Below, piece by piece: positions 1,264 through 42,880 of a stretch of 64,000 bases of DNA. Origin of the DNA: Candidatus Poribacteria bacterium (GTDB lineage Bacteria > Poribacteria > WGA-4E > WGA-3G). The notes under the pieces are model-generated. The model saw nothing but the letters and a program-made list of their open reading frames with translations, was not told where the DNA came from and did not search any database. The stretch spans positions 2,049,769 through 2,113,768 of the forward strand of contig OZ242349.1 of assembly GCA_965208635.1 (NCBI GenBank), in the 5' to 3' direction. Both the position numbers and the translations under genes were made by a program. How positions within the stretch are numbered: position 1 is the stretch's first letter; the number at the start of each line of letters is the position of its first letter.

Positions 1264-2127
1264 ATGCTTGACGAACGCCATCTACAACACCAGATTACTG
1301 ACGAGCAACTCCGCGAGCTAAACGAAAACGGGCATTTTACCGTTGAAGGTGCGCTTCCGCCAGATCTCGTCGAACGGCTTGAAACAAAGGTAGACTCCAT
1401 CTACCAGAACCATCTTGACGCTGGCTACGATCCATATAGCAAGAATCAACTCACTGAGCATAACAACTTCTTCTATCCGAATTTTCTCGGCACAGACCAA
1501 GTTTTCGTGAATATTTTAGATTGGTATAAAACGTTCCCGAAGGTCTGGGGAATCTTGGGATGGAATATCTACTCCTACCACAGCCATTTCATTATCACGC
1601 CACCGCGACCCGATGAGGTACGCGGTAAACCTGCCCCACTCGGTTGGCATCAGGATAGTGGACGCGTTAACTTTGAGATCGAAAGTTCACCGCGACCCCG
1701 CTTGTCCATAAAAGTCGTTTATTGGTTATCCGATTGCTCCGAAGTAGGGCGCGGGAATTTCTACGTCATACCGGGAAGCCATCTCTGGGATAAACTCGAT
1801 CGACCAGAAGACGGTGCGATGCCGGAGGGTGCAACGCCAGTTTGTTGCAAACCCGGTGACGCAGTCTTTTTCGACCGACGGATATGGCACGCCCGTAGCG
1901 AAAACGATTCAGACATCACCCGAAAGGGACTTTTTTACGGATACGGCTACCGGTGGCTACGGAGTAAGGACGACATGACCATACCCGCAGAGATGTTTGA
2001 GCGGAACGATCCGATTCGACAGCAGTTGCTCGGTGGTGGTACCAACGCAAACGGGCATTTTACACCCAAAGATGCAGATGTGCCGCTGAAGGTATGGCTT
2101 GAAGAAAAAGGCATCATTTCTAACTGA
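1264..2127 (+). CDS. phytanoyl-CoA dioxygenase (PhyH) family Fe(II)/2-oxoglutarate oxygenase
   Basis: LGWHQDSG (HxD), VIPGSHLW and RRIWHARS motifs. A GGAG SD lies upstream of the ATG. Confidence 0.75.
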   Translation: MLDERHLQHQITDEQLRELNENGHFTVEGALPPDLVERLETKVDSIYQNHLDAGYDPYSKNQLTEHNNFFYPNFLGTDQVFVNILDWYKTFPKVWGILGWNIYSYHSHFIITPPRPDEVRGKPAPLGWHQDSGRVNFEIESSPRPRLSIKVVYWLSDCSEVGRGNFYVIPGSHLWDKLDRPEDGAMPEGATPVCCKPGDAVFFDRRIWHARSENDSDITRKGLFYGYGYRWLRSKDDMTIPAEMFERNDPIRQQLLGGGTNANGHFTPKDADVPLKVWLEEKGIISN

Positions 2128-2179
2128 AATCACGAGGTTACTGAAACACAAAACGGTGCGATGCTAAACGCAAATTTAC

Positions 2180-2208
2180 TTGACACCTATAGCAAAATAG
2201 CGTATAAT
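2180..2208 (+). promoter_or_regulatory. consensus sigma70 promoter (TTGACA-17 nt-TATAAT) upstream of the tandem peroxiredoxin gene
   Basis: TTGACA at 2180..2185, exactly 17 nt of spacer, then TATAAT at 2203..2208, 36 nt upstream of ATG 2244. Confidence 0.55.
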
Positions 2209-2243
2209 TTCATTAACAACGTATCTAACGGAGGCATAACGCG

Positions 2244-3245
2244 ATGTTTCAAACGCGACTGAATGCAAGCGTCTGGGCTGTTATCCTCATAACAGCGATT
2301 TTGATTCCAGCAGCTTCAGGGGAGGAAGCAGTGACAACGCCAAACACACTAAAAGTCGGCATGGTCGCCCCCGATTTCACACTGAAAGACGAAGAAGGCA
2401 CCGAGCGAAGCCTTAGCGACTATTTAGGGAAAAAGAATATCGTTCTCGCTTTCTATCCAAAAGATTTTACAGGCGGATGAACGACTGAACTTTGCTCGCT
2501 CCGGGATAATTTGAGCGAGATAGAAGCCACCGAGAGTGTCCTTTTCGGTGTCAGTGTTGATTCCGTCGAATCGCATAAGCGGTTCCGGACAGAACAGAAA
2601 TTCGGATTCTCACTCTTAGCCGACACCGAATTTCAGGTGAGCAACCAGTACAGTGGTATCATTGAAAGCTTTAACGCCTCAAAACGGACAACTTTCATCA
2701 TCGATAAAGCCGGGTACATCCGTGCCATTGATACAGATGTCAATGTCAAAACGCACGGTGAAGATGTCGCTGTATTGCTTAAGGAAGTCCTACCAAAGAT
2801 AGAGGTCGGGCAACCCGCTCCAGATTTTATTGCGACCGATGGAACCGGTGAAACGCATCAACTCAGCGAATTGCATCAGGAAAAGAACGTCGTATTGGCA
2901 TTTTACCCACGCGATTTTGGGCGTGGCTGAACGGCTCAAGTTTGCTCACTCCGTGATGAGTCGAGTCATTTTGCGAAATACGATGCCCAAGTTTTTGGGA
3001 TTACAGCGAATGATGCGGATTCGCACCAAAAATTTTCGGAAGAAAATCAGTTGAACTTCCCGCTTTTGGTAGACACCGGACGCAATCTCGCACTCCTCTT
3101 CGGTGCGACGAATGCCCCAGATGGAAAAATCCAACGGTTAGCCGTTATTATTGATAAAACAGGGAAGATTCTTGAAATTGATAAAGAGGTTAACGCAAGC
3201 ACACACGGTGCAGACTTAGTTGATTTCTTCAAAACTCTCGATTAA
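2244..3245 (+). CDS. bcp: secreted tandem (two-domain) BCP/PrxQ-type peroxiredoxin with two in-frame UGA codons (2478..2480 and 2928..2930) at the peroxidatic-Cys positions; putative double selenoprotein
   Basis: Track ORFs 2244..2480, 2511..2930 and 3051..3245 share one frame and are separated only by the two TGAs. Read-through gives FYPKDFTGG-U-TTELCSLRD and FYPRDFGRG-U-TAQVCSLRD, which match the Bcp active site FYPKAMTPG-C-TVQACGLRD. The N-terminus looks like a signal peptide (MFQTRLNASVWAVILITAILIPAASG). A GGAGG SD is present. Confidence 0.8.
2495..2519 (+). promoter_or_regulatory. bacterial SECIS-like hairpin after UGA 2478
   Basis: 7-bp stem ctcgctc/gagcgag (2495..2501 / 2513..2519) with loop cgggataattt. 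The loop starts 21 nt after the UGA and has G at loop position 2. Confidence 0.55.
2944..2966 (+). promoter_or_regulatory. bacterial SECIS-like hairpin after UGA 2928
   Basis: gctc+actc (2944..2951) pairs with gagt+(c bulge)+gagt (2958..2966), loop cgtgat. The loop again starts 21 nt after the UGA with G at position 2. Confidence 0.45.
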
Positions 3246-3348
3246 AAAACCAAAGGACCCTGAAAATCCCAGGTCCCGTATAGAATTAACCAGAAACCTG
3301 CCCGAAACGTAGTGGAGGGCAGCCCAGGTTCAATCGTTTAAAAAATTG

Positions 3349-3963
3349 ATGGAGCATAGCGACTTATCGACAATTCCGGCTCGCATCGCGTGGGGCACCT
3401 CCGTTCTCTTCAGCCCATTTTTGGTCCCAATCGCAACCGCTGTTGGTGTCATCCAAAAACATGCGGCTCCCCAAGACGCACTCCGCTGGCTGGTAATTGT
3501 TGTCCTATTTGTTACCGTGCTACCGGTACTCTCGATTGCAGCGATGGTCCGGTATGCTAAAGTCAGCGATCTGCACTTGCATAACAGGGAAGAACGACTC
3601 TTACCTCTATGCTGTACACTTGTCAGTATGATTGTAGGGACCGTCCTATTGCACCAACTCGGTGCGGCACGGGAAATCGTGTGGGCAGGTATCGCTTACA
3701 TTGTAAACAGCCTTATTTTTTCTGCAATTACCCCGATGTGGAAAATAAGTTTTCACAGCAGTGTCGCCACTGGATGTGTTACCGTCCTTGTCATGCTTGT
3801 CAATCCACAATTCGGTTGGCTATTTCTGCTGATCCCACTGATTGTTTGGGCGCGAGTTTACCGAAAACGACACACACTTCTCCAAACCATCGTCGGCGCA
3901 GTGCTCGCTGTTGGCAATACGGTATTTATTTTGAATATGGCGAAACTGGGGGGACACAGTTAA
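3349..3963 (+). CDS. polytopic membrane protein with distant PAP2-like motifs
   Basis: About 6 hydrophobic helices. KISFHSS and ARVYRKRHTLLQ loosely resemble PAP2 motifs 2 and 3, but the final Asp is not conserved. Confidence 0.35.
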   Translation: MEHSDLSTIPARIAWGTSVLFSPFLVPIATAVGVIQKHAAPQDALRWLVIVVLFVTVLPVLSIAAMVRYAKVSDLHLHNREERLLPLCCTLVSMIVGTVLLHQLGAAREIVWAGIAYIVNSLIFSAITPMWKISFHSSVATGCVTVLVMLVNPQFGWLFLLIPLIVWARVYRKRHTLLQTIVGAVLAVGNTVFILNMAKLGGHS

Positions 3964-15251: not shown

Positions 15252-16673
15252 TTAGGTCAACGTTGCAGTCCGCAGGATAATCCGATCCTTTGTCCAATTA
15301 TCGCGATACCACGTACACGCTTCAAAGGTATCGTTAATCGCATTCATGCGCTGCTGCAAGAGAATTCGGAATTGATCTCGGAGTCCGGGCGATTCGGGTT
15401 CATCAATCAGATTCCGGGTTTGGAACGGGTCATCAACATTATCGAAGAGTTTCTCACTTCGATCCGGACGATGGATGGCGTAAGTATATCGTTTCGTACG
15501 GAGGGCGCGCCACTCATACCCGTCCTCCCACTTGGCAGTACATCCCATTCCTTGCATGAACGCCGCATCCGGTTCATCAGCGGGTTGGTGAAATGGGGTG
15601 TTGCTGAGATCCCTCCCTTCAACCTCTCCCGGAATCGGAAGACCCATCATCGACAACAGCGTCGGCATGATGTCTGGCGTGTTCAAGCATGCATCTGATA
15701 CATGACCTTTCGGAATCTGATCCTGCCACCGAACCAGAAACGGCACGCGCACCGCCTCTTCATAAAAGATATTCTTTGCACGACGACCTTGCGCACCAAA
15801 CATCTCACCGTGATCGGAGGTAAACACAAAGATCGTATTATCACGCAATCCGAGGTCATCAACGGCTTGCAGCAACCGCCCTATATTCCGATCCAGATTT
15901 GCAGTCATGGCGTAATAGACGCGCATCCACTCAGGGAGCGCAGCGCGTTCGGCGGGGGACATAACTGCCCATGTGTCGCTATAAGGATCGTTTTCGTCTC
16001 GATAGTTCGGCGGACGTGGGAAGTAAACGTCCTTGAACATCTCATAATCAGTGGCTGGAACGTTGTCCTGTGTCCACGGATCGTGCGGTGTCCCGATTGA
16101 GAGGAAAAGCGCGAACGGATCATCGCTCGTTGATGCCCGCTGCAGGTAATCGATTGCCATATCGGTTTGACCGTCCGGTTCATAACCCGGAATCACGATC
16201 TTTTCAGGCGAGTCTTTGTGATAATATGTGTCAAAGTACAGGTGATGAAAATTGTAAGCCGACCATTCCCCATCGAAACCGAGCCGATGTTGTCCCGGCG
16301 GAATGTAAGAATTCTCCGGATCGTTGTGTCTCCCTAATTGATTTGCCCACAGATGCCATTTCCCGATGTAGCTTGTCTGGTAACCGTTACGATGTAAAAC
16401 ATGACCGAAACAGTCATGATTCGGGTTCATGCGAAGCTCATTAATCGCCATACCGGTGCTACTGGCGTATTTACCGGTGAAGAGTGAGGCACGATAGGGG
16501 GCACACATCGGGCTACCGGAGACAGCGTTGCAGAAATTCGTACCCTCTGTCGCAAGCCGATCGATATTAGGGGTCCGTGCGCGGGTATCGCCAGCATAGC
16601 CACACGACTGGTAGCGGAGCTGATCGGCGAAAACATAAACGAGGTTCGGTTGCCGAGTTGTTGAATGAGACAT
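15252..16673 (-). CDS. Cys-type sulfatase (arylsulfatase family)
   Basis: LVYVFADQ, the formylglycine motif MCAPYRASLFTGKY (CxPxR) and FTSDHGE. ATG 16673 has a GGAG SD. The track ORF starts at TTG 16691. Confidence 0.9.
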   Translation of the reverse strand: MSHSTTRQPNLVYVFADQLRYQSCGYAGDTRARTPNIDRLATEGTNFCNAVSGSPMCAPYRASLFTGKYASSTGMAINELRMNPNHDCFGHVLHRNGYQTSYIGKWHLWANQLGRHNDPENSYIPPGQHRLGFDGEWSAYNFHHLYFDTYYHKDSPEKIVIPGYEPDGQTDMAIDYLQRASTSDDPFALFLSIGTPHDPWTQDNVPATDYEMFKDVYFPRPPNYRDENDPYSDTWAVMSPAERAALPEWMRVYYAMTANLDRNIGRLLQAVDDLGLRDNTIFVFTSDHGEMFGAQGRRAKNIFYEEAVRVPFLVRWQDQIPKGHVSDACLNTPDIMPTLLSMMGLPIPGEVEGRDLSNTPFHQPADEPDAAFMQGMGCTAKWEDGYEWRALRTKRYTYAIHRPDRSEKLFDNVDDPFQTRNLIDEPESPGLRDQFRILLQQRMNAINDTFEACTWYRDNWTKDRIILRTATLT

Positions 16674-16981
16674 CAAAGGACTCCGATGCAAAAATTGTTA
16701 TGACTTATGATACCTGTAGCATAGCATATTCCAGCAAATCGTTCAAGAAAAAATTGATACCGAGACTGCACACAACAGTAAAGAAAGTGTATTATTTTTA
16801 GTTATATTCAGGCTTTGTAACTTTTAATTTGAAAAATAATTATAATCCACCTATTATAACCAATACGGGTTGATAGTGTGTAGCAGAAGTGAAATAACCC
16901 GCGCCAGTAGCACAGAAGATTTAAACACGAGTCAAAAAACGCTACAAATTTGATTAATAAATTAATAAGGAGTATTTTTTG

Positions 16982-22339: not shown

Positions 22340-22810
22340 CTAATCCTTTTCGCCCACCGAGTCTAACTTTAACATATCAGTGTACTCAAACACAAGATCC
22401 ACACGTCCACCTTTCCATTTGACGGTATAGGGCTTTTTATACCGATCTCCGGGAGTGATGTTATTGATCATAACCTTATTACCCGCAATCGTAACATCAC
22501 CGAAAGTCGCACTAACATCTATAGGAGTCTTATCAAAGTAAAGAATGATAGGTTCTTCAGATAAAAACGTTATTTTTTTGGGATAATACTCAAGGAGCTC
22601 GGGGGGTTGGACTTCTTGGGTAACATCCATTTCAATCGCATCCAGCGATTCATGATCATTAAGCCTAAAATCAACAGGTATTCTGATTTCCAGACTTATC
22701 GGTTTTCCACCCTTCATGGCCGGACGAAAAGTACTCTTCCTTAACATCCGAATTGCCGCCTCCTCAAGTCCATATCCGAGACTTGTAAGAGCTGCGATGT
22801 CGCGTGGCAT
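22340..22810 (-). CDS. C-terminal part of a TonB-like protein (truncated TonB_C domain plus Ig-like domain); as called, it starts inside the TonB_C domain
   Basis: GYGLEEAAIRMLRKSTFRPAMKGGKPISLEIRIPVDFRL is a TonB C-terminal signature. The frame stays open upstream to the TGA at 22961..22963 and encodes the missing first strand (EGRVILKATIDENG). Confidence 0.6.
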   Translation of the reverse strand: MPRDIAALTSLGYGLEEAAIRMLRKSTFRPAMKGGKPISLEIRIPVDFRLNDHESLDAIEMDVTQEVQPPELLEYYPKKITFLSEEPIILYFDKTPIDVSATFGDVTIAGNKVMINNITPGDRYKKPYTVKWKGGRVDLVFEYTDMLKLDSVGEKD

Positions 22811-22960
22811 ACCGTTTTCATCAATAGTCGCTTTCAGAATAACCCTGCCTTCTTTCTCTGCTTTCTTGGCAATATCAGGATACTTCTTTTTTGAGAGATA
22901 CTTAATCTTCGGCGCGATGACTCCAGATTCAATCGCATCCAGCGATTCGTGATCATCCGG

Positions 22961-23263
22961 TCATAGCGTGGCATGTTCATATTCGCTAAGAAATTCGTGA
23001 AGTGGATTGTTCTTCGTCATATCAGAAAACTCCGCTCCTCCCACTGAATCGATATCATCAAGCGTCCAAGCCGTCCTTTTCCCTATGGGTCGAAGGGAAC
23101 GCTTCTCAATCTTTACCATTGGCTGTTCTTCAACGACGACTTCTTTTTCGGCATTCTTAGGAGTTGTGCTGGAGGCGGCTACGTTTCCTTCGGTTTTAAC
23201 AGAATCACAGCCGTTGATACAAATAGCAAATACACCAAGCATCAAAAAAACTAAGACTTTCAA
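22961..23263 (-). CDS. lipoprotein-like N-terminal part of the same TonB-like reading frame (ends at in-frame TGA)
   Basis: Lipobox signal MKVLVFLMLGVFAICINGC followed by an E/K/P-rich linker. It is in the same frame as 22340..22960. Confidence 0.55.
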   Translation of the reverse strand: MKVLVFLMLGVFAICINGCDSVKTEGNVAASSTTPKNAEKEVVVEEQPMVKIEKRSLRPIGKRTAWTLDDIDSVGGAEFSDMTKNNPLHEFLSEYEHATL

Positions 23264-23551
23264 CGGTATTCCCTCCTTCTGTAAATCAATGTAACGCGGT
23301 CCGATACTTTCACGTGAACTCCTAAAGTAAGTTGCTACATATAGAACTCTTTTTCAGCATCTTTAAGCACAGACAAGACATCACAGAAGAACGTAAATGG
23401 GGCCTTCAATGTCTTGTCATCCCAGATGATGAGCCTCGTCTGTTCGGTTTGCACCAATCAGGCACCTTCGAAATCGCAGATATTGAATACCAACCCGCAG
23501 ATGTAAATGGTGTCGAACAATCCAAGACGGTATCCTTTTCTTTCCCCGCTT

Positions 23552-24964
23552 TCACTTATCAGGTAGCTCTCTCCACTGTCCCTCAGTGATCTGATCTATC
23601 AGAATACGGGCTTTCTGACTTGCCCGAACCTGCTTTTCAATCTCAACAGGATCCCACTCCGCTAACAGTTGCGCTTCAAGTTCTCGACAAATTACTTGAT
23701 ACGCCTCGTCATTGGCAAGATTCCGAAATTCGTTCGGATCTTCGACAATGTCATAAAGTTCTGGGTCGTCCCCGAGGCTATAGTTGAATTTATATCGTCC
23801 TTTCCGCACCATCGCCATTGGGCGTTCGACACCGTGTGCGAGATATTCGGAGAACGCGAAATCTTTCCAATCGCTTGCGGTATCCTGTATCAAAGGCAAC
23901 AGACTGTCTCCATCCAACTGATTTAAAGGTTCTACTCCGGCAATATCCACAAGCGTCGCCGTTAGGTCCACGAGCGAAACCACTTCCTCAATACGTTTGC
24001 CTGCGGATAATCGGTCAGGAAACATAATCTGTAGCGGCACGCGCGCGGATGCTTCGTAGAAATTCGACTTACGCCACATACCGTGCTCACCGTTCATCTC
24101 ACCGTGGTCACTGGTATAGACAACAACTGTATTCTCTAACTGATCGGTTTCCTCAAGCGTCTTGAGCAAGTTGCCAATTTTCTCATCAAGATAGGTAATC
24201 AATCCATAATAGCCAGCGCGCCCACGGCGAACCAGTTCTTCGGGGAAGTCAACACAACCGAACATACGCCGCATCCGTTGATACACAGGATGTTGGTTTT
24301 CGAGGTGTCCTTCTGGAATATCGGGGAGATCAATTTCATCAAGCGGATAGAGATCCCAAAACCGTTGCGGCACAACGAGCGGAAAATGGGGTGCGATAAA
24401 CGAGACATTGAGTGCCCAGGGTTGTTCCTGCCGTGCTGGATCTCGGAGATACGCCAGAGCCTCTGTCTCTGCGAGGTTGTCCACCTCTATTTCCACCGTC
24501 GTTCCCGGACGTGCCTGTGTGAGACCTTGCCAGGGGCGCGGTGCTGGTGGTGTGCCGTTATCCCAATCTGTAAGTCCGTGCTGTCGTTCTGCGTGCAGAT
24601 CCCGGGCGAGTTGCGCCCGAAACCCGTGAAGTTGGTCCATCCCACCGAAGTGCTGTTTCCCAGAGAGCACGACATCGTAGCCTGCTGCCCGCAAGAGGTG
24701 TGCCCATGTGACAGCATCTGGACGCAAGGGAGCGGCGTTGTCCCACGCGCCGATGTGATGGATGTACTTACCCGTCATGAAGGACATCCGGGACGGCATA
24801 CAGAGCGGTGAATTGCAGTAAGCATTCGTGAAGGTAACACCCTCTTCGGCGAGTCTATCCATGTGAGGGGTTTGGACGAGTGGGTGTCCATAGGGACCAC
24901 TATACATCGGTGCGTGTTCGTCGGACATGATGATGAGGAGATTGGGGTGTTGTTTTGAAGGCAT
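23552..24964 (-). CDS. Cys-type sulfatase
   Basis: NLLIIMSDEH, CMPSRMSFMTGKY (CxPxR) and YTSDHGE. ATG 24964 is preferred over the track start at 25018. Confidence 0.9.
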   Translation of the reverse strand: MPSKQHPNLLIIMSDEHAPMYSGPYGHPLVQTPHMDRLAEEGVTFTNAYCNSPLCMPSRMSFMTGKYIHHIGAWDNAAPLRPDAVTWAHLLRAAGYDVVLSGKQHFGGMDQLHGFRAQLARDLHAERQHGLTDWDNGTPPAPRPWQGLTQARPGTTVEIEVDNLAETEALAYLRDPARQEQPWALNVSFIAPHFPLVVPQRFWDLYPLDEIDLPDIPEGHLENQHPVYQRMRRMFGCVDFPEELVRRGRAGYYGLITYLDEKIGNLLKTLEETDQLENTVVVYTSDHGEMNGEHGMWRKSNFYEASARVPLQIMFPDRLSAGKRIEEVVSLVDLTATLVDIAGVEPLNQLDGDSLLPLIQDTASDWKDFAFSEYLAHGVERPMAMVRKGRYKFNYSLGDDPELYDIVEDPNEFRNLANDEAYQVICRELEAQLLAEWDPVEIEKQVRASQKARILIDQITEGQWRELPDK

Positions 24965-25191
24965 GGTGATCCTAAATTTCAGAGCTTTCAGAGTAAATAC
25001 GAAAGAACAATACGTCAAAAAATGGGCGAAACCTCACGTCAGACGTGGCTTTGTGTGGTTTTGGAATAAATTGGCACTCGGAACTACTCTGAAATTAACG
25101 AAGCATTCGCGATGCCTCAAGTTTCAGAGCGATCATCCCTCTTATTGCTTATCGCTTTCAGCATTCTAATCGGTTACTTTCGCCCAAAATT

Positions 25192-28155
25192 CTAATCTGA
25201 TGCCTCCACTTTGGAAAGTAATTCAAGAAGATGGATTGAAGGAATTACCAAGTTACGATTCTGATGCTGAAGATGTTTCTCTATGAACATTTCCTTTGCT
25301 GCAACACCTATAACTTGTCCTTTCCTGTTCAGTACAGGACACCCGTTACATCCATCAGGAATCGGCGCGGTAATTTCAAAAAAATTCCTTTCATAAAGAC
25401 GACTGATAATACCTTGTGAAAACGTATCCGGGCTACTTGCGACGTAAATGGTATCACCTATTTGAACATCCTCGTTGCTGAGATACAGAGGTTGTACATC
25501 AGTATTCGACACCTTTAGTATCGCTAATTGATCGTCAATAGCAGCTATACCTTCAACTTCAATACAAGGAACTTCATAACTGTCTTTCCGCTGATCGTGG
25601 TACAGTGTCAATGAATCGTCTTTATAAATAATATTATCAATCTTCTGAATAATTGCATTAATCCAACTGGATGCGAATCTCCTGGAGTTGGTCCGTTTCC
25701 ATACGAACGAAGTATTGCTTTCCAGATCGTATAACTTGCCGAATCTTTTTCGCCTGAAGTATCCTGGGGGTGTTGCAAGAAAACGATGTGTAGCAATTAG
25801 ATTCTGTTTAACGAAAAAGCCATTACCGGAAGCATGGTTATATTCTCTGGTATATTCCATAATTCCCAATGTACTCCTGGGTGGGCGTGCTCCTTTTTCC
25901 ACCATTAGTACTATGCTATCCAATACGCGCCGGGCTATCTGCTTAGAAGTTTGTGGTGTTTTCGTAATATCCCATAGAAGAATTGTGCCATCATCACTCC
26001 CACTCGCGAGGGTGCGGCCATCAGGACTGAAGGCTACCCAACTAATATAACCAGTATGCCCTTTGAGAGTGGCCTTGTGGCGACCTGTCGTATTAAACCA
26101 AGTCGGATATATACGTGTATCGTCGTGAGATTGATGGAGGATTCTGTGCACATTCCACAAAGTTACATCCTTACTTCCTACAGCAAGGGCAGAACCATCA
26201 GGACTAAAGGCAACACTTGAAACACCGTCAAGTCTATTAAGGGACGCTTTACATTCTTCACTGACCACATCCCACAAATATACCTCTCCATCTCCCGAAC
26301 TTCTAGCTCCACTGGCGAGAGTCCGCCCATCAGGAGAAAACGCAATGCTAAAAACATATTCCTTCCCATGTCCCGCGAGTGTGGTTTTAAGTTCCCCATT
26401 GGTGGCATCCCACAGATACACCGTGCCATTTCCACTCCCGCCAGCGACAGTAAGACTATCAGGAGAAAACGCCACACTCAAGATAGTTTCATAATGTTCA
26501 GTGGTTAGCGTGGCTTTATTTTTGCAAGTAACGGCATCCCACAATTGAATTGTAGTGTCCTTTGCCAAATCATCTCTACTGCCGGTCGCGAGCGTTTTCC
26601 CATCAGGGGAATAGGCTAATACGAAGCCATCAATAGAATATTCTCGTAATGGTTCACTCGTTTGAACGCCTCTACGCCCTTCAAAAGTGGTAGCTCGAGG
26701 TTTCCCAGATTCCACATCCCAAAGCCGGATGGTACCATCTTCACTCGCACTCGCAAGGGTTTTTCCATCAGGGGAATAGGAGACAGCATCAGCAAACATT
26801 TTGAAGTCGTCTTTTATCCATCGTCCCAAAGGCACCTTGAACGTGCTTTGAAGGCACCCTGATCGCACATTCCAAATGCGAATTATCTTATCACCCACTT
26901 TGCCGTGTCCACTTCCACTAGCGATTGTACTGCCATCAGGATCGAATGATATGGAAGAAACAGATCTTGTATGCCCTGTGATCGTTTGCAAGTGTTCTCC
27001 AGTGACAGCGTTCCATAACCGGATAGTGCTGTCACCACCTATACCTGCAAATGCTCTGCTATCAGGGTTGAAAACAAGGCTATAAACTTCATCAGTATGT
27101 TCAGTGAGGGTTAACTTGTGCTCACCACTAACAGCATTCCACAATCTAATTTTCTTGTCTCGATCTGCAATAGCAAGTGTGCTGCTATCGGGACTGAAGG
27201 CAATAGCATCTGAATATCCTGTAAGTTCTGCCTTGAGTTGGTACGTGGCGGTATCCCACAGAAGAATTTTGTCATCCTTACTCGCACTGACAAAAGAAGC
27301 ACCATTGGGGGAGTATGCTACCGTAAAGACACTGTTTGTATGCTGCTCTGTGAGTGTTTCTTTATGTTCACCTGTGGCAGCATCCCATAATTGAACAGTA
27401 CCCGGCCATAGATCTCTATCAATATTGTTGTCCCAACCTCCAGTAGCGATTGTGTCTCCATCTGGACTGAATGCGATGGAATTGGCGCGAAAATCAGGAT
27501 TCTCAAGGGTAATGTGTTGACCAGTTTCTATATTCCACAATCGAATCATTTCAACATTTTTCATAGGCCCCCCGAAAAAACCACCACTATCTGCACTTGC
27601 GAGCGTTTGACCATCAGGACTGAATACCATCAATTTATATCCACCTGTATGTCCTTTGAGTGTCGCTTTGCGTTTACCGGTAACAACGTCCCACAATCGT
27701 ATCGTTCCGTCTCCACGTGGGTCTACATTTCCACTGGCGAGGATACTACCATCGGGACTGAATTCTACACAGGTTACACGTTCCTCATGCTCACCAAGCG
27801 TTACTTTGTGTTCTCCAGTGTTTGGATCCCACAAGCAAACCGTACCAGCATACAAGGAACCATCGGGGGAATACGCAATCAACTCCGGCCAAACTGCCCC
27901 ACCGCTAGCTAAGGTATGACCATCGGGGGAGTACGCAATCAACTCCGGTCCCTTTATATGTCCTGTGAGAAGATTCAATTCTTTGCCCGTATGGGCATTG
28001 TATATCCATATCCCAATGGAACTACCGACTGCAAGTTGCGTACCATCTGGAGAATACCTGATTTGACCTATTATTCCCTTCCCAAGGCGTGATCTGGGCT
28101 CTTCGGAGACATACCATTCAGCATTGTTTTGGGTAGGGTCATTTGGAAAAAACAT
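25192..28155 (-). CDS. WD40-repeat protein (16 SPDG...LW(D/N) units) fused to a C-terminal chymotrypsin/S1-like domain with a non-canonical active-site motif
   Basis: 16 repeats of the (F/Y)SPDG..LASG....I.LWD type. The C-terminal ~240 aa carry SGNGFFV..NLIATHRF (His), DDQLAILKV (Asp) and DGCNGCPVLN in place of GNSGGPLLN. Confidence 0.8.
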   Translation of the reverse strand: MFFPNDPTQNNAEWYVSEEPRSRLGKGIIGQIRYSPDGTQLAVGSSIGIWIYNAHTGKELNLLTGHIKGPELIAYSPDGHTLASGGAVWPELIAYSPDGSLYAGTVCLWDPNTGEHKVTLGEHEERVTCVEFSPDGSILASGNVDPRGDGTIRLWDVVTGKRKATLKGHTGGYKLMVFSPDGQTLASADSGGFFGGPMKNVEMIRLWNIETGQHITLENPDFRANSIAFSPDGDTIATGGWDNNIDRDLWPGTVQLWDAATGEHKETLTEQHTNSVFTVAYSPNGASFVSASKDDKILLWDTATYQLKAELTGYSDAIAFSPDSSTLAIADRDKKIRLWNAVSGEHKLTLTEHTDEVYSLVFNPDSRAFAGIGGDSTIRLWNAVTGEHLQTITGHTRSVSSISFDPDGSTIASGSGHGKVGDKIIRIWNVRSGCLQSTFKVPLGRWIKDDFKMFADAVSYSPDGKTLASASEDGTIRLWDVESGKPRATTFEGRRGVQTSEPLREYSIDGFVLAYSPDGKTLATGSRDDLAKDTTIQLWDAVTCKNKATLTTEHYETILSVAFSPDSLTVAGGSGNGTVYLWDATNGELKTTLAGHGKEYVFSIAFSPDGRTLASGARSSGDGEVYLWDVVSEECKASLNRLDGVSSVAFSPDGSALAVGSKDVTLWNVHRILHQSHDDTRIYPTWFNTTGRHKATLKGHTGYISWVAFSPDGRTLASGSDDGTILLWDITKTPQTSKQIARRVLDSIVLMVEKGARPPRSTLGIMEYTREYNHASGNGFFVKQNLIATHRFLATPPGYFRRKRFGKLYDLESNTSFVWKRTNSRRFASSWINAIIQKIDNIIYKDDSLTLYHDQRKDSYEVPCIEVEGIAAIDDQLAILKVSNTDVQPLYLSNEDVQIGDTIYVASSPDTFSQGIISRLYERNFFEITAPIPDGCNGCPVLNRKGQVIGVAAKEMFIEKHLQHQNRNLVIPSIHLLELLSKVEASD

Positions 28156-28252: not shown

Positions 28253-30457
28253 TTAACTTGCAAATAGGTTGGGTGATGTTTGGCTTGGAGGTTGGAGCAA
28301 GTTAATTGGTATAGATGGTGTTTGGGGTTGCTCTGCCTGTTGTAGAGACATTGCGGTGAAGGTTTCAAGTGAGTAAAGTTCCATTCCACTTTGAAATTCA
28401 GACGGATTTTTCTCTACAGGTGAGGTGTAAATCTGTTCCTTTTTCTCTCTTAATATTGCAGCAATATCTTTTGGCAATTTAACGCCAGCCTTTTTCTCAA
28501 AACCCTCCACGCTTTGATAAGATTTACTAAAAACGGTAGGAATATCTATGCCTTCGTTTGCTGCACTTGTTAAGCTAATTCTGGCTTTCTCCCATTCTTG
28601 CTGGTGCAACCGAGCCATTGCGCGATTGTAATAGGCTGGTGCATAATCGGGATCTAACCTTAGTGCTTTTGTATAGTCTTTAAGGGCTTGATTAAACTCG
28701 TCATTGTTGAAGTAAGCCAGTCCACGATTGTGATAAAATATTGCCTCATCTCGACTCAGGTCTATCGCCTTACTGTAATTTTCAATAGCCTCGTCAAAAT
28801 CGCCGCCGTTACTATAAACGTTGCCAAGGTTATTATAAGCTGCAGCATTGTCTCGTTCCAATTCCAGTGCTTTTTTTAAGTCATCAATTGCTAGACTTAC
28901 CTCGCCAATGTCCCCATAGGCAACACCGCGATTGACATAAGCTCTGACATGCTTGGGATTAAGTTCTATCGTCTCAGTATAGTCCCTTATAGCCAAATCA
29001 AGTTTTCCCACGCTATTGTAACCAATGGCGCGATTGAAATAGATATTCGCATGGTTGAGCCCCAGTTCTATCGCCTTTGTACAGTCATCTAAGGCCTTGT
29101 CAACTTTGCCAATAATACCGTAAGCGGCCCCGCGACTAGCATAGGCTTCTACAGCCTGGGGATCAATTTGTACAACTGTCGTGTAATCGGCAATGGCTGA
29201 GTCAAGATCGCCTTTGAACAAGTAAACATTACCACGATTATGATAAGGTGCGGCAAACTTTGGATCAATTTGTATTGCCATTGTATAATCAGCGATAGCT
29301 TTGTCAAAGCTGCCTTTGTTACTATAAGCAATACCGCGATTGATATAAGATGGAATGTGGTTAGATTGGACCCGAAGCACTTCCGTATAATCCACAATAG
29401 CCCTATCAAATTCACTTCTTGCGCTGTAGGCGATGCCGCGATTAAAATAGCATTCGACGTGACGTGGATTTAGTTCTATCACTTTCGTATAGTCCGTTAT
29501 GGCTCTGTCAAAATCGCCATTGCTACTATAAGCATTGCCTCGTTCATAATACGCGTTGAGATAATCGGGTTGTAGTTTTACTGCTTTTGTGTAACTTTCA
29601 ATTGCCGAATTCACTTCGCCTTTGTTGTCGAAAGCCATACCCAGAATCAGATGCGCATCCGCAGCGTTGGAATTGCGTTCCAACGCTTTTTCACAGTCTG
29701 TAATAGCGGAGTCAAAATCCTCCTTAAGACTATAAGCAGTTGCGCGGGTGATATAAGGATGAGCAGCATTCGGATTGAGTTCTATCACCTTTTGGAAGTC
29801 TGCGATAGCGGAGTCAAAATCCCTTTTAAGTAAGTGAATGTGGCCTCGCATAATATAGACTGGTGGGTAATTCGGTTTCAGTTTTATCGCCCTGCTATAG
29901 TCTGCAATAGCTTTATCACCCTCACCTTTGCTGCTATAAATATTACCACGAATAGCGTAGACTTCAGCAAAATCAGGCTTGATTCGTATCGCTTTGCTAT
30001 AGTCCATAATCGCGAAGTCAAGTTCACTTTTGTCTCCGTAAGCGTTGCCTCGAATGAGATAGGCCTCAGCAACATCAGGATTAAGCTGTATCGCCTTATC
30101 ACAATCTTCAATGGCACGATCGAACTCTTTCTTGCCAACATAAGCATGAGCGCGGTGGTAATAGGCCTCAGCGTAGTCCGGTTGGTATTGGATCGCCTTG
30201 GTGAAGTCTTCAATTGCCTTATCAATTTCACCATTAGCCCCATACGCCATACCGCGCCCGTGATAAGCTCTCGCGGGTTGGCGAGTCCAGAAAACCGCTT
30301 GGGTATAATCGTCAATCGCGAGATCAAACTTGCCCATCTTATGGTAAACTTCGCCTCGGTAAACATAGGGCATAACAAAACCGGGGCTCAGTTCAATAGC
30401 ATTGCTAAAATGCTTGACAGCTTCTTCATAGTGTGCCATCTTCGCTTTGTTAGCCAT
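28253..30457 (-). CDS. tetratricopeptide-repeat protein (about 19 consecutive 34-aa TPR units) with a non-repeat C-terminal tail
   Basis: Highly regular AI.DY..AI.L.P....AY..RG.AY units span nearly the whole ORF. The ATG at 30457 overlaps the upstream FRG gene by 8 nt, with a GGAGA SD. Confidence 0.85.
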   Translation of the reverse strand: MANKAKMAHYEEAVKHFSNAIELSPGFVMPYVYRGEVYHKMGKFDLAIDDYTQAVFWTRQPARAYHGRGMAYGANGEIDKAIEDFTKAIQYQPDYAEAYYHRAHAYVGKKEFDRAIEDCDKAIQLNPDVAEAYLIRGNAYGDKSELDFAIMDYSKAIRIKPDFAEVYAIRGNIYSSKGEGDKAIADYSRAIKLKPNYPPVYIMRGHIHLLKRDFDSAIADFQKVIELNPNAAHPYITRATAYSLKEDFDSAITDCEKALERNSNAADAHLILGMAFDNKGEVNSAIESYTKAVKLQPDYLNAYYERGNAYSSNGDFDRAITDYTKVIELNPRHVECYFNRGIAYSARSEFDRAIVDYTEVLRVQSNHIPSYINRGIAYSNKGSFDKAIADYTMAIQIDPKFAAPYHNRGNVYLFKGDLDSAIADYTTVVQIDPQAVEAYASRGAAYGIIGKVDKALDDCTKAIELGLNHANIYFNRAIGYNSVGKLDLAIRDYTETIELNPKHVRAYVNRGVAYGDIGEVSLAIDDLKKALELERDNAAAYNNLGNVYSNGGDFDEAIENYSKAIDLSRDEAIFYHNRGLAYFNNDEFNQALKDYTKALRLDPDYAPAYYNRAMARLHQQEWEKARISLTSAANEGIDIPTVFSKSYQSVEGFEKKAGVKLPKDIAAILREKKEQIYTSPVEKNPSEFQSGMELYSLETFTAMSLQQAEQPQTPSIPINLLQPPSQTSPNLFAS

Positions 30458-31379: not shown

Positions 31380-32891
31380 ATGCCTGAAACCAGACCTAAT
31401 ATCCTACTTATTACGAGCGATCAGCAACATTGGAATACCTTGGGCTGCCTCAACGCTGAAATTCAGACCCCGCACTTAGATGCATTGGCACAGCAAGGCA
31501 CACTTTTCAATAGAGCCTACTGCCCGAACCCGACCTGCACCCCTACACGCGCCTCTATTATTACCGGAAAATATCCGAGCCAACACGGTGCCTGGTCCCT
31601 CGGCACGAAACTCTCTGAAGATGAGCATACCGTCGGTGAAGATTTCACGGATGCGGGGTATCGCACTGCCCTCGTCGGCAAGGCGCATTTTCAACCGCTC
31701 CACGGTACTGAGGAATTCCCGTCTCTCGAATCCTATCCGATCCTCCAAGATTTGGACTTTTGGCGCAGTTTCAATGAACCGTTTTACGGGTTTGAACACG
31801 TTGAACTCGCACGCAACCACGCCGACGAAGCGCACGTTGGACAACACTACGCTATCTGGATGGAGGAAAACGGCTGCCCCAATTGGCGCGACTACTTCGC
31901 GCCGCCGACAGGGAACGCTCGCGGGCAGTATCGGAAATGGCACATTCCAGAAGAATATCATTACGATACATGGATTGCGGAACGCACCAACGCACTCATG
32001 GAAACATATCAGCAGAATGGCGAAAACTTTTTCCTTTGGGCGAGCTTCTTCGATCCACATCCAAAATATCTCGTGCCAGAGCCGTGGGATACGATGTACG
32101 ACCCAACGGCATTGACAGTGCCTTCCGTAACCGAGGGAGAACATGATAACAATCCACCGCATTTTCAGCTAACACAACAAGAAAAGCCTGACTTCTCGGC
32201 TTGGCGTGAAAGTGGAAAGGGTGCCCACGGCTTCAACTCACATTTACGCGATCAAGATGAACTCGCCAAAGACATCGCTGTCTATTACGGGATGGTGACG
32301 CTGATGGACAAATACATCGGGAAAATCTTGGCGAAACTCGATGAACTCGGACTTGCAGAGAACACACTGGTTGTCTTCACATCCGACCACGGACACTTCT
32401 ACGGACAGCACGGACTTGTGGCGAAGGGTGCATTTCACTATGAAGACGTGATCCGAGTGCCGTTTATCGTGCGGCATCCGGGGATCGTACCTGCGGGAAG
32501 ACACTCTGACGCGTTGCAAACATTGGTAGATTTAGCACCTACATTCCTCAGTGCCGCCGGTATCGACGTACCACTACCGATGACGGGTGTCGATCAGATG
32601 CCGGTCTGGTCGGGAGAAGCAGAACAGGCGCGCGACCATATCATCGTTGAAAACCACCATGAACCGACAACAGTACACGTTAAAACCTATGTTAACGATC
32701 GTTATAAACTCACTGTCTACTACAACCGAGAGTATGGGGAATTGTTTGATTTGCAAGAGGATCCGGGAGAGGTCAAGAACTTGTGGGATTCTGCCGAACA
32801 CTCAGCACTAAAGGCGGATCTGGTGATGAAGTTATTGTTCGCAGAGATGGGGAAGGAACCGTTGTGGATGCCGCGAACTTCGGGGGCGTAG
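31380..32891 (+). CDS. Cys-type sulfatase
   Basis: NILLITSDQQ, CTPTRASIITGKY (CxPxR) and FTSDHGH. Confidence 0.9.
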   Translation: MPETRPNILLITSDQQHWNTLGCLNAEIQTPHLDALAQQGTLFNRAYCPNPTCTPTRASIITGKYPSQHGAWSLGTKLSEDEHTVGEDFTDAGYRTALVGKAHFQPLHGTEEFPSLESYPILQDLDFWRSFNEPFYGFEHVELARNHADEAHVGQHYAIWMEENGCPNWRDYFAPPTGNARGQYRKWHIPEEYHYDTWIAERTNALMETYQQNGENFFLWASFFDPHPKYLVPEPWDTMYDPTALTVPSVTEGEHDNNPPHFQLTQQEKPDFSAWRESGKGAHGFNSHLRDQDELAKDIAVYYGMVTLMDKYIGKILAKLDELGLAENTLVVFTSDHGHFYGQHGLVAKGAFHYEDVIRVPFIVRHPGIVPAGRHSDALQTLVDLAPTFLSAAGIDVPLPMTGVDQMPVWSGEAEQARDHIIVENHHEPTTVHVKTYVNDRYKLTVYYNREYGELFDLQEDPGEVKNLWDSAEHSALKADLVMKLLFAEMGKEPLWMPRTSGA

Positions 32892-33005: not shown

Positions 33006-33824
33006 TCAATACCGTCGTTTCCAGTGCCAACTGTCGCTGCCTGAAATAAGCGGACGGATGTCCTCTGGCAATGTCTCAACAAATTCGGGACTGACCTCGT
33101 TGCCGGGCCATTCGCGCACCATCGGAGGTGTGTAACCGGAGATGAGGATGACACGTTCCTTATCGCTACGGATAGCAGTCGTACTGTGGATCAACGCCTC
33201 GGCAAAAAGAAGGACGGAACCGGCTGACGCTTCGACTTGGTAGATGAGTTTGTCGTCAGAGAGTGCCGCTTCGATCATCTCTTTATGATCCCACGTTAAG
33301 CGATGACTTCCGGGTATAACGCATGTCCCACCGTCGTCTGGACCGACATCGGTGAGGTAGGCGAGCGTCTTCACGAAGATGCAGTGGAACTTATTCTGTT
33401 CGATGTACGTGCCCCATCCGTGTTGCGTCCCACGATGAAACCCCGTCGGGTTATAGCGGCGTTTATAGAGTTCATCCAATTCCATCTCTGGATTCCGACT
33501 ATTAATGATCGCTTCGGTTTCCTCAAGACGTACTGCACCCCCTACCACTTCCTCAACGAGAGGCACCAATTGCGGATGCGCGGCGTATTCCAACAGTGCT
33601 GGATCATACGCAACAAGATTCCCGAAAAGCACATGGTGTTCACTTTTCCCACGGGCATAGACCCGCTTGGCATCCAGATCCTCGTCGGCTTTCATCCTAT
33701 AGAGCGCGCCTTTCATACGCGCAATTTCATCATCGTTCAGGACGTTCTCCAACAACACAAACCCGTAGATGTCGAAGTGGAGTCGTTGCGCTGGTGTCAG
33801 GCAAACCTTTTCACTGTTTTTCAT
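33006..33824 (-). CDS. PhyH-like Fe(II)/2OG dioxygenase superfamily protein
   Basis: LTPAQRLHFDIYGFVLLENVL N-terminus and VIPGSHRL. ATG 33824 has a GGAGA SD. The canonical HxD is not obvious. Confidence 0.55.
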   Translation of the reverse strand: MKNSEKVCLTPAQRLHFDIYGFVLLENVLNDDEIARMKGALYRMKADEDLDAKRVYARGKSEHHVLFGNLVAYDPALLEYAAHPQLVPLVEEVVGGAVRLEETEAIINSRNPEMELDELYKRRYNPTGFHRGTQHGWGTYIEQNKFHCIFVKTLAYLTDVGPDDGGTCVIPGSHRLTWDHKEMIEAALSDDKLIYQVEASAGSVLLFAEALIHSTTAIRSDKERVILISGYTPPMVREWPGNEVSPEFVETLPEDIRPLISGSDSWHWKRRY

Positions 33825-33904
33825 TTTTTTCTCCAAGACCAAGAGATATTCCCTACCTGGCGCAAACTAACAGTTTACGCTACAAATACCGAACCTATGT
33901 TTTC

Positions 33905-41713: not shown

Positions 41714-42880
41714 CTACTGCTTCGTTTTTTCTTTCTCAAGCTGTGACTTCTGCCAACCGTAATCAACGCCACCCTCGTAGAATTTGTCCGGATGCTCCAC
41801 TGCCCAAATTTGTTTATGGATAATCCAGTTCTGCGGGTCTAATGCCAAAGCCTTCCGCCATTCTGCCATTGCTTCCTCTTTTTTACCGACCTCCAATAAG
41901 ACCAAGCCAAGTTGAAAACGCGCAGAGGCTTCGGTGGTAACCTGAGCGTTTACCGCATTCAAGAGTTTCACATCACGAAGCAATTTCACATTATAATCGG
42001 GGTCCGATACCCACTTTTCAAGCATCGTGAGGGTTTTCTGATCCGCAACATTGATGTTGAAAGGTCCTTTTACCAACCGTCCTGCCTCATCAATCATAAC
42101 GCCATAGGGAATAGCTTTGAGGTCATAGCGGGTACCGAATGTATTTTGTGAATCAACGAGCGTGACAAAATCGGCATCTGCCGCATCATGCCAAGGACGC
42201 ACGACGGATGCGCCTTGTGCATCAAGTGCAATGGAGACAAGGTTTAACTTCTCCCAGTGTTTAGCATAAAACGCCTGCCAGCCTGGCAGCTGTTCACGAC
42301 ACCCTCACCACGAACCCCAAACATAGAGTAGTGTCTTTTTCCCTCTGAAATCTTGTAAGTGTCTGGGTGTCCCTTCAAGGTCGGGAAGTGTGAATTCGGG
42401 TGCGAGATGCATAGGTTGAATAATCTCTAATCGGTTTACTGATACTTCGTAGATTTCAAAGCCGAAGGGTTCTGTAACCAGCACCGGTTGGACATAAGTT
42501 ACGCCATCAATATCAACAACACCCTTGTGCGAGCCTATAGAGGAGCCCTGTGGGGCAATATCTTGGAATTCGAGAGGTACACACAATTCTGATGCCCCAC
42601 CACAGAGAACCGCCATCTTCGCACCTTCTGGGTACTCGACTTTTAAGCCGAGCTGTTTGGCGAAAGGTTCCAAAGGCACGAACCATTTATCCTCTCTGAG
42701 AATAGGAGGTGCGGCAAATGTGACACGTTGTGCCTCTATCGTAATCTGCAGATCCTCTCTACTCATATTCTCCTCTTCGGCTAACCCTACCCGTAAGTCC
42801 ACTGCACAGAACAGAGCCGTTGTCAACATTATGAACCCCACTATACGCCCCAGTCTGCGAACTGATATTGCGAGAATCAT
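41714..42880 (-). CDS. exported thioredoxin-fold (TlpA/ResA-like redoxin) protein with N-terminal copper-amine-oxidase-N1-like domain and C-terminal TPR, read through an in-frame UGA (42305..42307) at the active-site Cys position; putative selenoprotein
   Basis: Track ORFs 42305..42880 and 41714..42202 share a frame, and the 34 codons between them contain no stop. Read-through gives APEFTLPDLEGTPRHLQDFRGKKTLLYVWGSW-U-GCREQLPGWQAFYAKH..., where TlpA/ResA proteins have FWASWCGPCR. Confidence 0.75.
42275..42289 (-). promoter_or_regulatory. bacterial SECIS-like hairpin after UGA 42307..42305
   Basis: On the minus strand, cugcca-ggc-uggcag forms a 6-bp stem. The loop starts 21 nt after the UGA and its first base is G. 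Confidence 0.45.

Follow-up and report, generated by a model that had tools for sequence, protein, structure and literature searches.

Can two in-frame UGA codons in a single bacterial gene both be decoded as selenocysteine? This question is raised by a gene for a two-domain peroxiredoxin of the PrxQ/BCP type, which lies near the start of a 64,000-nucleotide stretch of Candidatus Poribacteria DNA (hereafter the window; contig OZ242349.1 of assembly GCA_965208635.1, positions 2,049,769 to 2,113,768). The reading frame (2244..3245, forward strand) comprises 333 codons followed by TAA, and is unbroken except at codon 79 (TGA at 2478-2480, in the context FYPKDFTGG-*-TTELCSLRD) and codon 229 (TGA at 2928-2930, in the context FYPRDFGRG-*-TAQVCSLRD); the two codons are 450 nucleotides (nt) apart. 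An initial annotation of this DNA had described three open reading frames (ORFs) in one frame, split by nothing but the two TGAs, and had predicted that gene callers would fragment the gene. Retranslation yields the same coordinates and contexts, and mechanical ORF calling indeed returns three pieces (2244..2480, 2511..2930 and 3051..3245). Comparison across related genomes indicates that both UGAs very probably encode selenocysteine (Sec), each at the peroxidatic position of its own domain. The coding features are as follows:

2244..3245, forward strand: tandem PrxQ/BCP peroxiredoxin coding sequence with in-frame UGA codons at U79 and U229, recognized by translation, Pfam, NCBIfam and AlphaFold2
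2349..2792, forward strand: peroxiredoxin domain 1 (approximately residues 36-183), with P72-x-x-x-T76-x-x-U79, Cys84 at U+5 and catalytic Arg148
2478..2480, forward strand: UGA 1, codon 79, peroxidatic position of domain 1, predicted selenocysteine; TGA in 23 of 23 sequences
2793..3242, forward strand: peroxiredoxin domain 2 (approximately residues 184-333), with P222-x-x-x-G226-x-x-U229, Cys234 at U+5 and Arg298
2928..2930, forward strand: UGA 2, codon 229, peroxidatic position of domain 2, predicted selenocysteine; TGA in 23 of 23 sequences

Both halves of the product adopt the peroxiredoxin fold. With Cys substituted at both stops, a Pfam search recovers two AhpC-TSA/Redoxin domains (E 5.4e-70) at residues 38-161 (profile positions 1-123 of 124) and approximately 188-318. 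PF00578 (AhpC-TSA) scores 233.5 bits over two stretches (cut-off 26), and the model for Bcp-type thioredoxin-dependent thiol peroxidases, NF006960, scores 181 bits (cut-off 140). The AlphaFold2 model of the two-domain protein has a predicted local distance difference test score (pLDDT) of 86 and a predicted template modelling score (pTM) of 0.83, with low confidence at residues 1-33. Each half matches Bcp and AhpE structures with template modelling (TM) scores of 0.83-0.89, the best matches per half being E. coli Bcp, Sulfolobus Bcp1 (3drn) and M. tuberculosis AhpE (1xvw) at 30-41% identity; Bcp1 and AhpE are the closest solved relatives. All three are cytoplasmic, single-domain Cys enzymes, and no solved chain among the structure matches spans both domains (query-normalised TM <=0.42). 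Domain coverage in Pfam and the structure matches agree with the earlier claim that each half is a complete peroxiredoxin domain. Domain 2 is 39% identical to domain 1 (E 2e-37). The boundary between them (approximately residue 183/184) falls in the middle of the second mechanical ORF and coincides with neither TGA; the three ORFs are therefore fragments of a fold, not genes.

The two UGAs stand where a peroxiredoxin carries its reactive residue. Their columns align with the Cys of Cys-type homologues and with the active-site position of Bcp and AhpE, in agreement with the initial proposal that they replace the peroxidatic Cys (which compared them with the E. coli Bcp active site, FYPKAMTPG-C-TVQACGLRD). 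Domain 1 fits the PxxxT/SxxC(U) motif (PKDFTGGU), while domain 2 of the window and of relatives L004-L014 has Gly in place of the near-universal, activating Thr of the motif: PRDFGRGU in the window's clade (codons 222-228, 2907..2927) and PRDFGTGU in L010. Deeper-branching poribacterial orthologues keep the Thr in domain 2, as PKDFTGGU or PMDMTPGU. Sec, with its low pKa and strong nucleophilicity, may render the Thr unnecessary in domain 2, or the domain may have changed role. The catalytic Arg, some 70 residues past the reactive residue, is invariant in the protein alignment for domain 1 (R148) and nearly invariant for domain 2 (R298); only domain 1 of L086, described below, has lost it. A resolving Cys lies at U+5 in both domains of the window protein (C84 and C234), matching the atypical 2-Cys arrangement of Bcp. 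C234 is nearly invariant across the family; C84 is confined to the window's sub-clade. Most other members have Q, N, K or R at this position, which makes their domain 1 1-Cys-like.

Conservation of both codons provides the first line of evidence for recoding. A scan of one genome per species identified the gene in 20 genomes of Candidatus Poribacteria (L004-L022, L026); two metagenome contigs (L001 and L002) also carry it, giving 23 sequences with the window. The nearest relative of the window is OZ246979.1, and identity to the window protein by tblastn ranges among the 20 genomes from 93% (L004) down to 53%; the most distant protein, P0014 (L002/L003), is approximately 51% identical. All 22 relatives have TGA at both sites and no other stop or frameshift, and the 23 assemblies include complete long chromosomes. 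TGA in 23 of 23 independent assemblies excludes sequencing error, and with it the doubt, voiced in the initial annotation, that the sites might in truth read TGY. The same annotation had proposed checking that homologues carry Cys or TGA at both positions, and they do: TGA in the 22 relatives, Cys in the Cys-type homologues. An in-frame UGA/Cys pair conserved among orthologues, the usual mark of a selenoprotein, is thus present at both sites.

Public protein records obscure this pattern. Seventeen full-length, two-domain database proteins (P0001-P0017; 50-86% identity) are recorded with Trp (W) at both positions. Retranslation of the contigs behind P0002 and P0014 shows that the W codons are TGA and that the product fails to translate under table 11, so that W at the catalytic positions apparently reflects gene calls under code 4 on short contigs. 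Such an artefact hides selenoproteins and could mislead analyses of active sites.

Outside Poribacteria, the best matches are single-domain Cys-type PrxQ proteins or fusions of PrxQ with another thioredoxin-like domain, and in the Ignavibacteriales (L023/L024) two Cys-type genes are adjacent but separate; as far as has been seen, the family is restricted to Poribacteria. In two further loci of a related lineage, L086 (4001..4999) and L087 (990..), which correspond to proteins P0018-P0020, domain 1 is catalytically dead: its codon is UCA (Ser), the motif Thr and catalytic Arg are lost, the signal peptide is absent, and the site-1 hairpin of the family is destroyed (+3.9 kcal/mol in the family register). 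Domain 2 of these loci retains its UGA, its hairpin and an intact site, and gene callers stop the protein at the domain-2 TGA. This pattern of loss indicates that the UGA travels with the catalytic residues and the hairpin.

Each UGA is followed by a hairpin resembling a bacterial selenocysteine insertion sequence (SECIS). The two elements are:

2495..2519, forward strand: SECIS-like hairpin 1, a 7-bp stem (2495-2501 / 2513-2519) with an 11-nt loop, CGGGAUAAUUU
2944..2966, forward strand: SECIS-like hairpin 2, an 8-bp stem with one bulged C (2944-2951 / 2958-2966) and a 6-nt loop, CGUGAU

In both hairpins, the loop begins 21 nt beyond the UGA, and its second nucleotide is G; the positions, the spacing and the loop G reported in the initial annotation were all reproduced. 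If two inner G-U pairs form, the loop of hairpin 1 shrinks to 5-6 nt. The bacterial SECIS (bSECIS) model, as quoted in PMC13188914, calls for a stem of 4-16 bp, a loop of 3-9 nt with G within its first two positions, a spacing of 16-37 nt and an energy of <=-7.5 kcal/mol. The 21-nt spacing, the G at loop position 2 and the 7- and 8-bp stems fall within these bounds, and the loop size of site 1 and the energy of site 2 lie at their border. As bare hairpins, site 1 has an energy of -10.3 kcal/mol (-9.3 with the inner G-U pairs) and site 2 one of -7.4 kcal/mol; the single-sequence folding z-score of site 1 is -2.2.

Pairing in the stems is conserved, with compensatory changes. At site 2, all 184 of 184 cells of the helix are paired, compared with 25-39% when the 3' partners are slid by 1-3 columns, and compensatory double changes occur at two positions of the helix (C-G to U-A in L022; A-U or G-U to U-A in L002); RNAalifold recovers the same helix independently. 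Site 1 takes two forms. In the window's clade (13 sequences), the 7-bp stem with its 11-nt loop is 97.8% paired, and one pair shows a double change: the closing pair, mostly C-G, is G-C in L011 and L014. In the deeper-branching clade (10 sequences), site 1 has the register and loop of site 2, is 97.5% paired and has three double-change pairs. Slid controls across both sites are 16-57% paired. These alignments suggest that the UGA and its SECIS were duplicated along with the domain, site 1 being remodelled later. In several genomes, hairpin 2 is predicted to be extended by a lower stem (GGCAGAAG...UUUGCC); this stem is not counted among the elements here, as its register shifts between clades and its pairing is between A-rich and U-rich codons.

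Codon choice is constrained over the same interval. Normalised synonymous-codon entropy at codons +4 to +13 is 0.27 (site 1) and 0.22 (site 2), versus 0.75 and 0.72 in the other conserved columns between codons -30 and +39 around each UGA, and the suppression is significant by permutation after both UGAs (p <=5e-5). Leu is encoded by CTC in 23 of 23 sequences at both sites, compared with five to six codons in Leu columns elsewhere. Ser is TCG and Arg is CGG in 21 of 23 sequences each at site 1; at site 2, TCG encodes Ser +6 in 17 of 23, and both CGT and CGG are used for Arg. The codons flanking UGA 2, GGC and ACG, are invariant.

A purpose-built scanner that applied the loop, spacing and energy constraints quoted above separates Sec sites from Cys sites. 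At the predicted Sec sites, the best hairpin lies 21-24 nt after the UGA in 46 of 46 cases, with median energies of -9.3 kcal/mol at one site and -9.1 at the other; 78-87% of these hairpins are at or below -7.5 kcal/mol. Across 61 active-site codons of Cys-type PrxQ genes from non-poribacterial loci, the median is -0.2 kcal/mol, 6.6% reach -7.5 kcal/mol, and just one of the 61 does so at the spacing of the Sec sites. Since the codons of Cys-type PrxQ genes so rarely have hairpins, those of the poribacterial gene are no by-product of encoding the C-S-L-R-D peptide.

Several observations weigh against decoding of both UGAs as Sec. The site-2 z-score is -0.7, no better than shuffled sequences, and the minimum free energy fold of the window's own sequence there is a different structure; at -7.4 kcal/mol, site 2 also only borders the -7.5 criterion. 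The unbroken site-1 loop of 11 nt falls outside the 3-9 nt model unless the two G-U pairs form, and in L022, the most divergent genome, which keeps the UGA, the site-1 hairpin is weak (-2.8 kcal/mol). Most helix positions are invariant, the covariation therefore resting on few pairs in few sequences, and the 5' arm largely encodes the conserved C-S-L-R-D peptide. Rfam returned no SECIS family, either across the whole window at the gathering threshold or at E up to 10 over 2200..3300, where the sole match, to a snoRNA on the opposite strand, is due to chance. That the hairpins exceed chance is thus a conclusion from sequence comparison, not from thermodynamics.

For Sec-decoding capacity the evidence is indirect but good. 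Neither the 64-kb window nor approximately 400 kb of poribacterial flanks (20 loci of approximately 20 kb) contains a selA, selB, selD or tRNA-Sec gene. ARAGORN predicted neither tRNAs nor tRNA-Sec, whether in the window or in the 20 poribacterial loci, and a tblastn search of the window and every fetched locus with the SelA, SelB and SelD proteins of E. coli gave nothing relevant, its one weak match being to a GTPase in a non-poribacterial locus. The Sec machinery is documented in related genomes only, and there only through tables of COG counts: COG1921 (SelA), COG3276 (SelB) and COG0709 (SelD) are listed for three poribacterial genomes, with SelA/SelB/SelD counts of 2/1/1 in bin70, 4/1/2 in bin44 and 2/1/1 in Ca. 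Poribacteria WGA-3G (Slaby et al. 2017, Table S4; PMC5649159). Locus L009, which bears a double-TGA orthologue with 81% identity, belongs to WGA-3G. Group 4 [NiFeSe] hydrogenases that contain Sec are moreover reported from Poribacteria in a 2026 survey (PMC13582414). Further indirect support comes from a second candidate selenoprotein gene in the window (41714..42880, reverse strand), described below.

Upstream signals and the N-terminus indicate a single gene, probably strongly expressed, with a probably exported product. The features concerned are:

2180..2208, forward strand: sigma-70-type promoter, TTGACA-17 nt-TATAAT, with 12 of 12 consensus matches and the start codon 36 nt downstream
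2230..2234, forward strand: ribosome-binding site GGAGG, read from the sequence, with the ATG at 2244 starting 9 nt later
2244..2318, forward strand: probable Sec-type signal peptide, MFQTRLNASVWAVILITAILIPAAS, with a basic n-region, a 15-residue hydrophobic core and an A-A-S cleavage-like motif

The promoter is the sole strong promoter-like site in 2050..3450, and the scan of this region found no comparable site upstream of the second or third ORF fragment. It is unusually strong for a sigma-70 promoter, and might offset the low efficiency of two serial Sec insertions. Homologues keep the N-terminal hydrophobic segment with its A-x-A-like end. The segment is probably a signal peptide for the Sec translocation pathway, and the protein probably exported.

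Four other explanations of the locus can be set against this evidence. It is scarcely credible that the gene is a decaying pseudogene, the result of assembly or sequencing error, or three small genes corresponding to the mechanical ORFs. Although ORF calling does yield three pieces and no SECIS family is matched in Rfam, 23 independent assemblies at approximately 51-93% identity share the same two TGAs with no further stops or frameshifts. Between each TGA and the first start codon available after it lie 10 and 40 codons, respectively, which are conserved and contribute to the fold. Domains are interrupted at the ORF ends, and a promoter and ribosome-binding site stand in front of the first ORF alone. 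Three separate genes, an outcome contemplated in the initial annotation, are excluded, as homologues keep a single frame and the ORF fragments cut across folds. A reassigned code, in which UGA is Trp (table 4) or Gly (table 25) and the W of the database is the true residue, is likewise given next to no weight. The 17 homologues recorded with W at both positions would favour it, but the two that were retranslated have TGA codons on short contigs and lack a translation under table 11. TGA also serves as an ordinary stop, with 13 of 43 long ORFs in the window ending in it at lengths that fit their Pfam domains, and the gene call for the relative P0018, on a 94-kb contig, stops precisely at the domain-2 TGA. 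A peroxidatic Trp or Gly would furthermore leave the enzyme inactive, yet the remaining active site is conserved.

The other two explanations accept that the UGAs are functional. Recoding to Cys by a SECIS- and SelB-dependent allo-tRNA of the tRNA(ReC) type, or in a variant by Cys- or Ser-charged tRNA(Sec) under selenium limitation, would yield an ordinary PrxQ with two Cys active sites. At the protein level, the present data fit Sec or Cys equally. A 2026 hydrogenase study describes tRNA(ReC)-like tRNAs in some Sec-using genomes, and UGA recoding with SECIS by both anticodon types. This explanation is nonetheless improbable, though less so than those above: poribacterial genomes list SelA and SelD, which serve Sec synthesis, beside SelB; a UGA and a costly hairpin have been kept over more than 20 species where a single change to UGY would give Cys, which argues that Sec itself is selected; and a tRNA(ReC) is unsupported by the search of the window and 20 poribacterial loci, in which no tRNA was found. 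Alternatively, one or both UGAs might act as sites of regulated termination, making the locus as much a selenium-gated switch as an enzyme: the full chain would be produced when selenium is at hand, and translation would otherwise halt. Bacterial Sec insertion competes with release factor RF2. Two serial UGAs multiply the inefficiency of insertion, for which the consensus promoter and ribosome-binding site could compensate. The truncated products (78 or 228 residues) would lack a complete active domain, and nothing suggests a function for them; a termination switch would also supplement decoding as Sec instead of replacing it. As a rival, it is rated somewhat below recoding to Cys and is very unlikely.

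With both UGAs decoded as Sec, a catalytic route can be proposed. SelB carrying Sec-tRNA(Sec) would be recruited at each UGA by its own hairpin within the coding sequence, Sec would be inserted at the peroxidatic position of each domain, and two independent recoding events on one mRNA would give a 333-residue chain. Following PrxQ chemistry, each selenolate would reduce H2O2 or an organic hydroperoxide and form a selenenic acid. In domain 2, and also in domain 1 in the window's clade, the Cys at U+5 would resolve this acid to a selenenylsulfide, which a thioredoxin-fold reductant would then reduce. Sec would confer higher reactivity than Cys and resistance to irreversible over-oxidation.

The nature of the reductant depends on where the enzyme resides. 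In Caulobacter crescentus, the envelope peroxiredoxin PprX is reduced by TlpA, itself reduced by the membrane electron transporter ScsB (Cho et al. 2012; PMC3322552). Unlike the two-domain UGA protein, PprX has one domain and uses Cys, but it sets a precedent for an extracytoplasmic peroxiredoxin fed by a protein of the TlpA/ResA type. If the poribacterial protein is exported, its reductant might by this precedent be a TlpA/ResA-type envelope protein. No ScsB, DsbD or CcdA gene was identified, nor any functional link to the peroxiredoxin, and a TlpA/ResA-type reductant is speculative. The window too encodes a membrane-anchored ResA-like protein, a speculative partner:

41714..42880, reverse strand: ResA/TlpA-like candidate selenoprotein gene with TGA at 42305-42307 (..VWGSW-U-GCREQ..), a separate gene given for context

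The product of this gene has an N-terminal membrane anchor or signal and a TPR-like C-terminus, and its top NCBIfam match is NF041054 ('ResA-like WAxxUGC motif-containing protein'; E 2.4e-42, short of the equivalog cut-off). Homologues of the product carry WASW-C-GC. A 6-bp hairpin with the loop GGC begins its loop 21 nt after the UGA, the same spacing as at the peroxiredoxin sites. ORF callers split this gene as well, into 42305..42880 and 41714..42202.

A more elaborate proposal, which we consider unlikely but worth stating, is that the two domains divide the labour in a selenium-based relay that detoxifies peroxide outside the cytoplasm of a sponge symbiont. Domain 1, which in most members has the full P..T..U/Arg site and no resolving Cys, would be the peroxide-reactive Sec peroxidase. 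Domain 2, always U..C and with its Thr lost in the window's clade, would be a built-in resolving or relay module. An inter-domain selenenylsulfide or diselenide would pass oxidising equivalents on to an envelope reductase, possibly the ResA-like selenoprotein encoded 39 kb away.

Sec-containing peroxiredoxins of the Bcp type constitute a catalogued selenoprotein family (COG1225, PF00578, motif TxxU, one Sec; PMC9312934, PMC13188914). The Sec peroxiredoxin that has been characterised experimentally is PrxU of Eubacterium acidaminophilum (Sohling et al. 2001, as cited in PMC9312934 and PMC13188914). The poribacterial protein shares with this family the Bcp/PrxQ fold, a predicted Sec at PxxxTxxU (P-K-D-F-T-G-G-U in domain 1) and a hairpin within the coding sequence just downstream. 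It differs in having two fused domains, two UGAs, two SECIS and a signal-like N-terminus, and in the Gly that replaces the motif Thr in domain 2 of the window's clade. It scores 111 bits against the PrxU equivalog NF040737 (cut-off 270), indicating that it is no PrxU orthologue and that the relation is at the level of the superfamily.

Bacterial proteins with more than one Sec are also on record, among them methyltransferase/UXPK-star, MbdU and UxxU proteins and an arsenite methyltransferase/AhpD-domain selenoprotein with three Sec residues (PMC13188914). The poribacterial gene resembles these in predicting more than one UGA-encoded Sec per polypeptide, and fusions in which each domain has its own Sec have precedents. 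The catalogued cases combine different domains, or have close Sec residues that possibly share one SECIS. In the poribacterial case, an internal duplication has produced two paralogous catalytic domains with UGAs 450 nt apart, and in deeper-branching members paralogous SECIS stand in the same register at both UGAs. No NCBIfam model specific for a tandem two-UGA peroxiredoxin was found, and literature searches on tandem or double peroxiredoxins and on selenocysteine in Poribacteria returned no description of this gene. The initial annotation's judgement that the gene is unusual holds in part: the tandem two-domain architecture is new, whereas Sec-containing Bcp-type peroxiredoxins and double selenoproteins were already catalogued. 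What is new is the duplicated Sec-peroxiredoxin architecture, with its two separate UGA/SECIS modules, its signal-like N-terminus and its conservation throughout Poribacteria; the mechanism is not.

The gene offers a comparatively validated case of two independent, presumably SECIS-dependent recoding events in one bacterial mRNA. Its SECIS pair, duplicated and then diverged through the register shift at site 1 in one clade, should be useful for understanding how SECIS evolve under protein-coding constraint. A phylum-wide predicted selenoenzyme is added to the Poribacteria, prominent uncultivated sponge symbionts, and indicates that their biology includes a selenium-dependent defence against peroxide, probably located in the cell envelope. 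The locus also exposes an annotation artefact in large protein databases, in which the gene is split or its catalytic Sec appears as Trp (code 4, short contigs).

Directly 3' of the peroxiredoxin gene lies a gene for a PAP2-like integral membrane protein (3346..3963, forward strand), which keeps this position in closer relatives (L004-L011) but not in deeper-branching ones and has no evident functional link to it. A TonB_C ORF (22340..23353, reverse strand; first base of its TGA at 22963) was considered as a third selenoprotein gene and set aside, its TGA lacking a Cys-like context. The 130 codons in frame before the single TGA contain a lipoprotein-like signal (..FAICINGC..), and the ORF may be a pseudogene, two genes or a case of read-through. 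The window further contains, in keeping with its poribacterial assignment, two paralogues of PhyH (phytanoyl-CoA dioxygenase; 1264..2127 and 33006..33842), three sulfatase genes (15252..16691, 23552..25018 and 31380..32891) and genes for large, eukaryote-like repeat proteins of the WD40 (25192..28155, 987 amino acids) and TPR (28253..30457, 734 amino acids) types. High counts of WD40 repeats are also recorded for the poribacterial genomes in the COG table of Slaby et al. (2017; PMC5649159).

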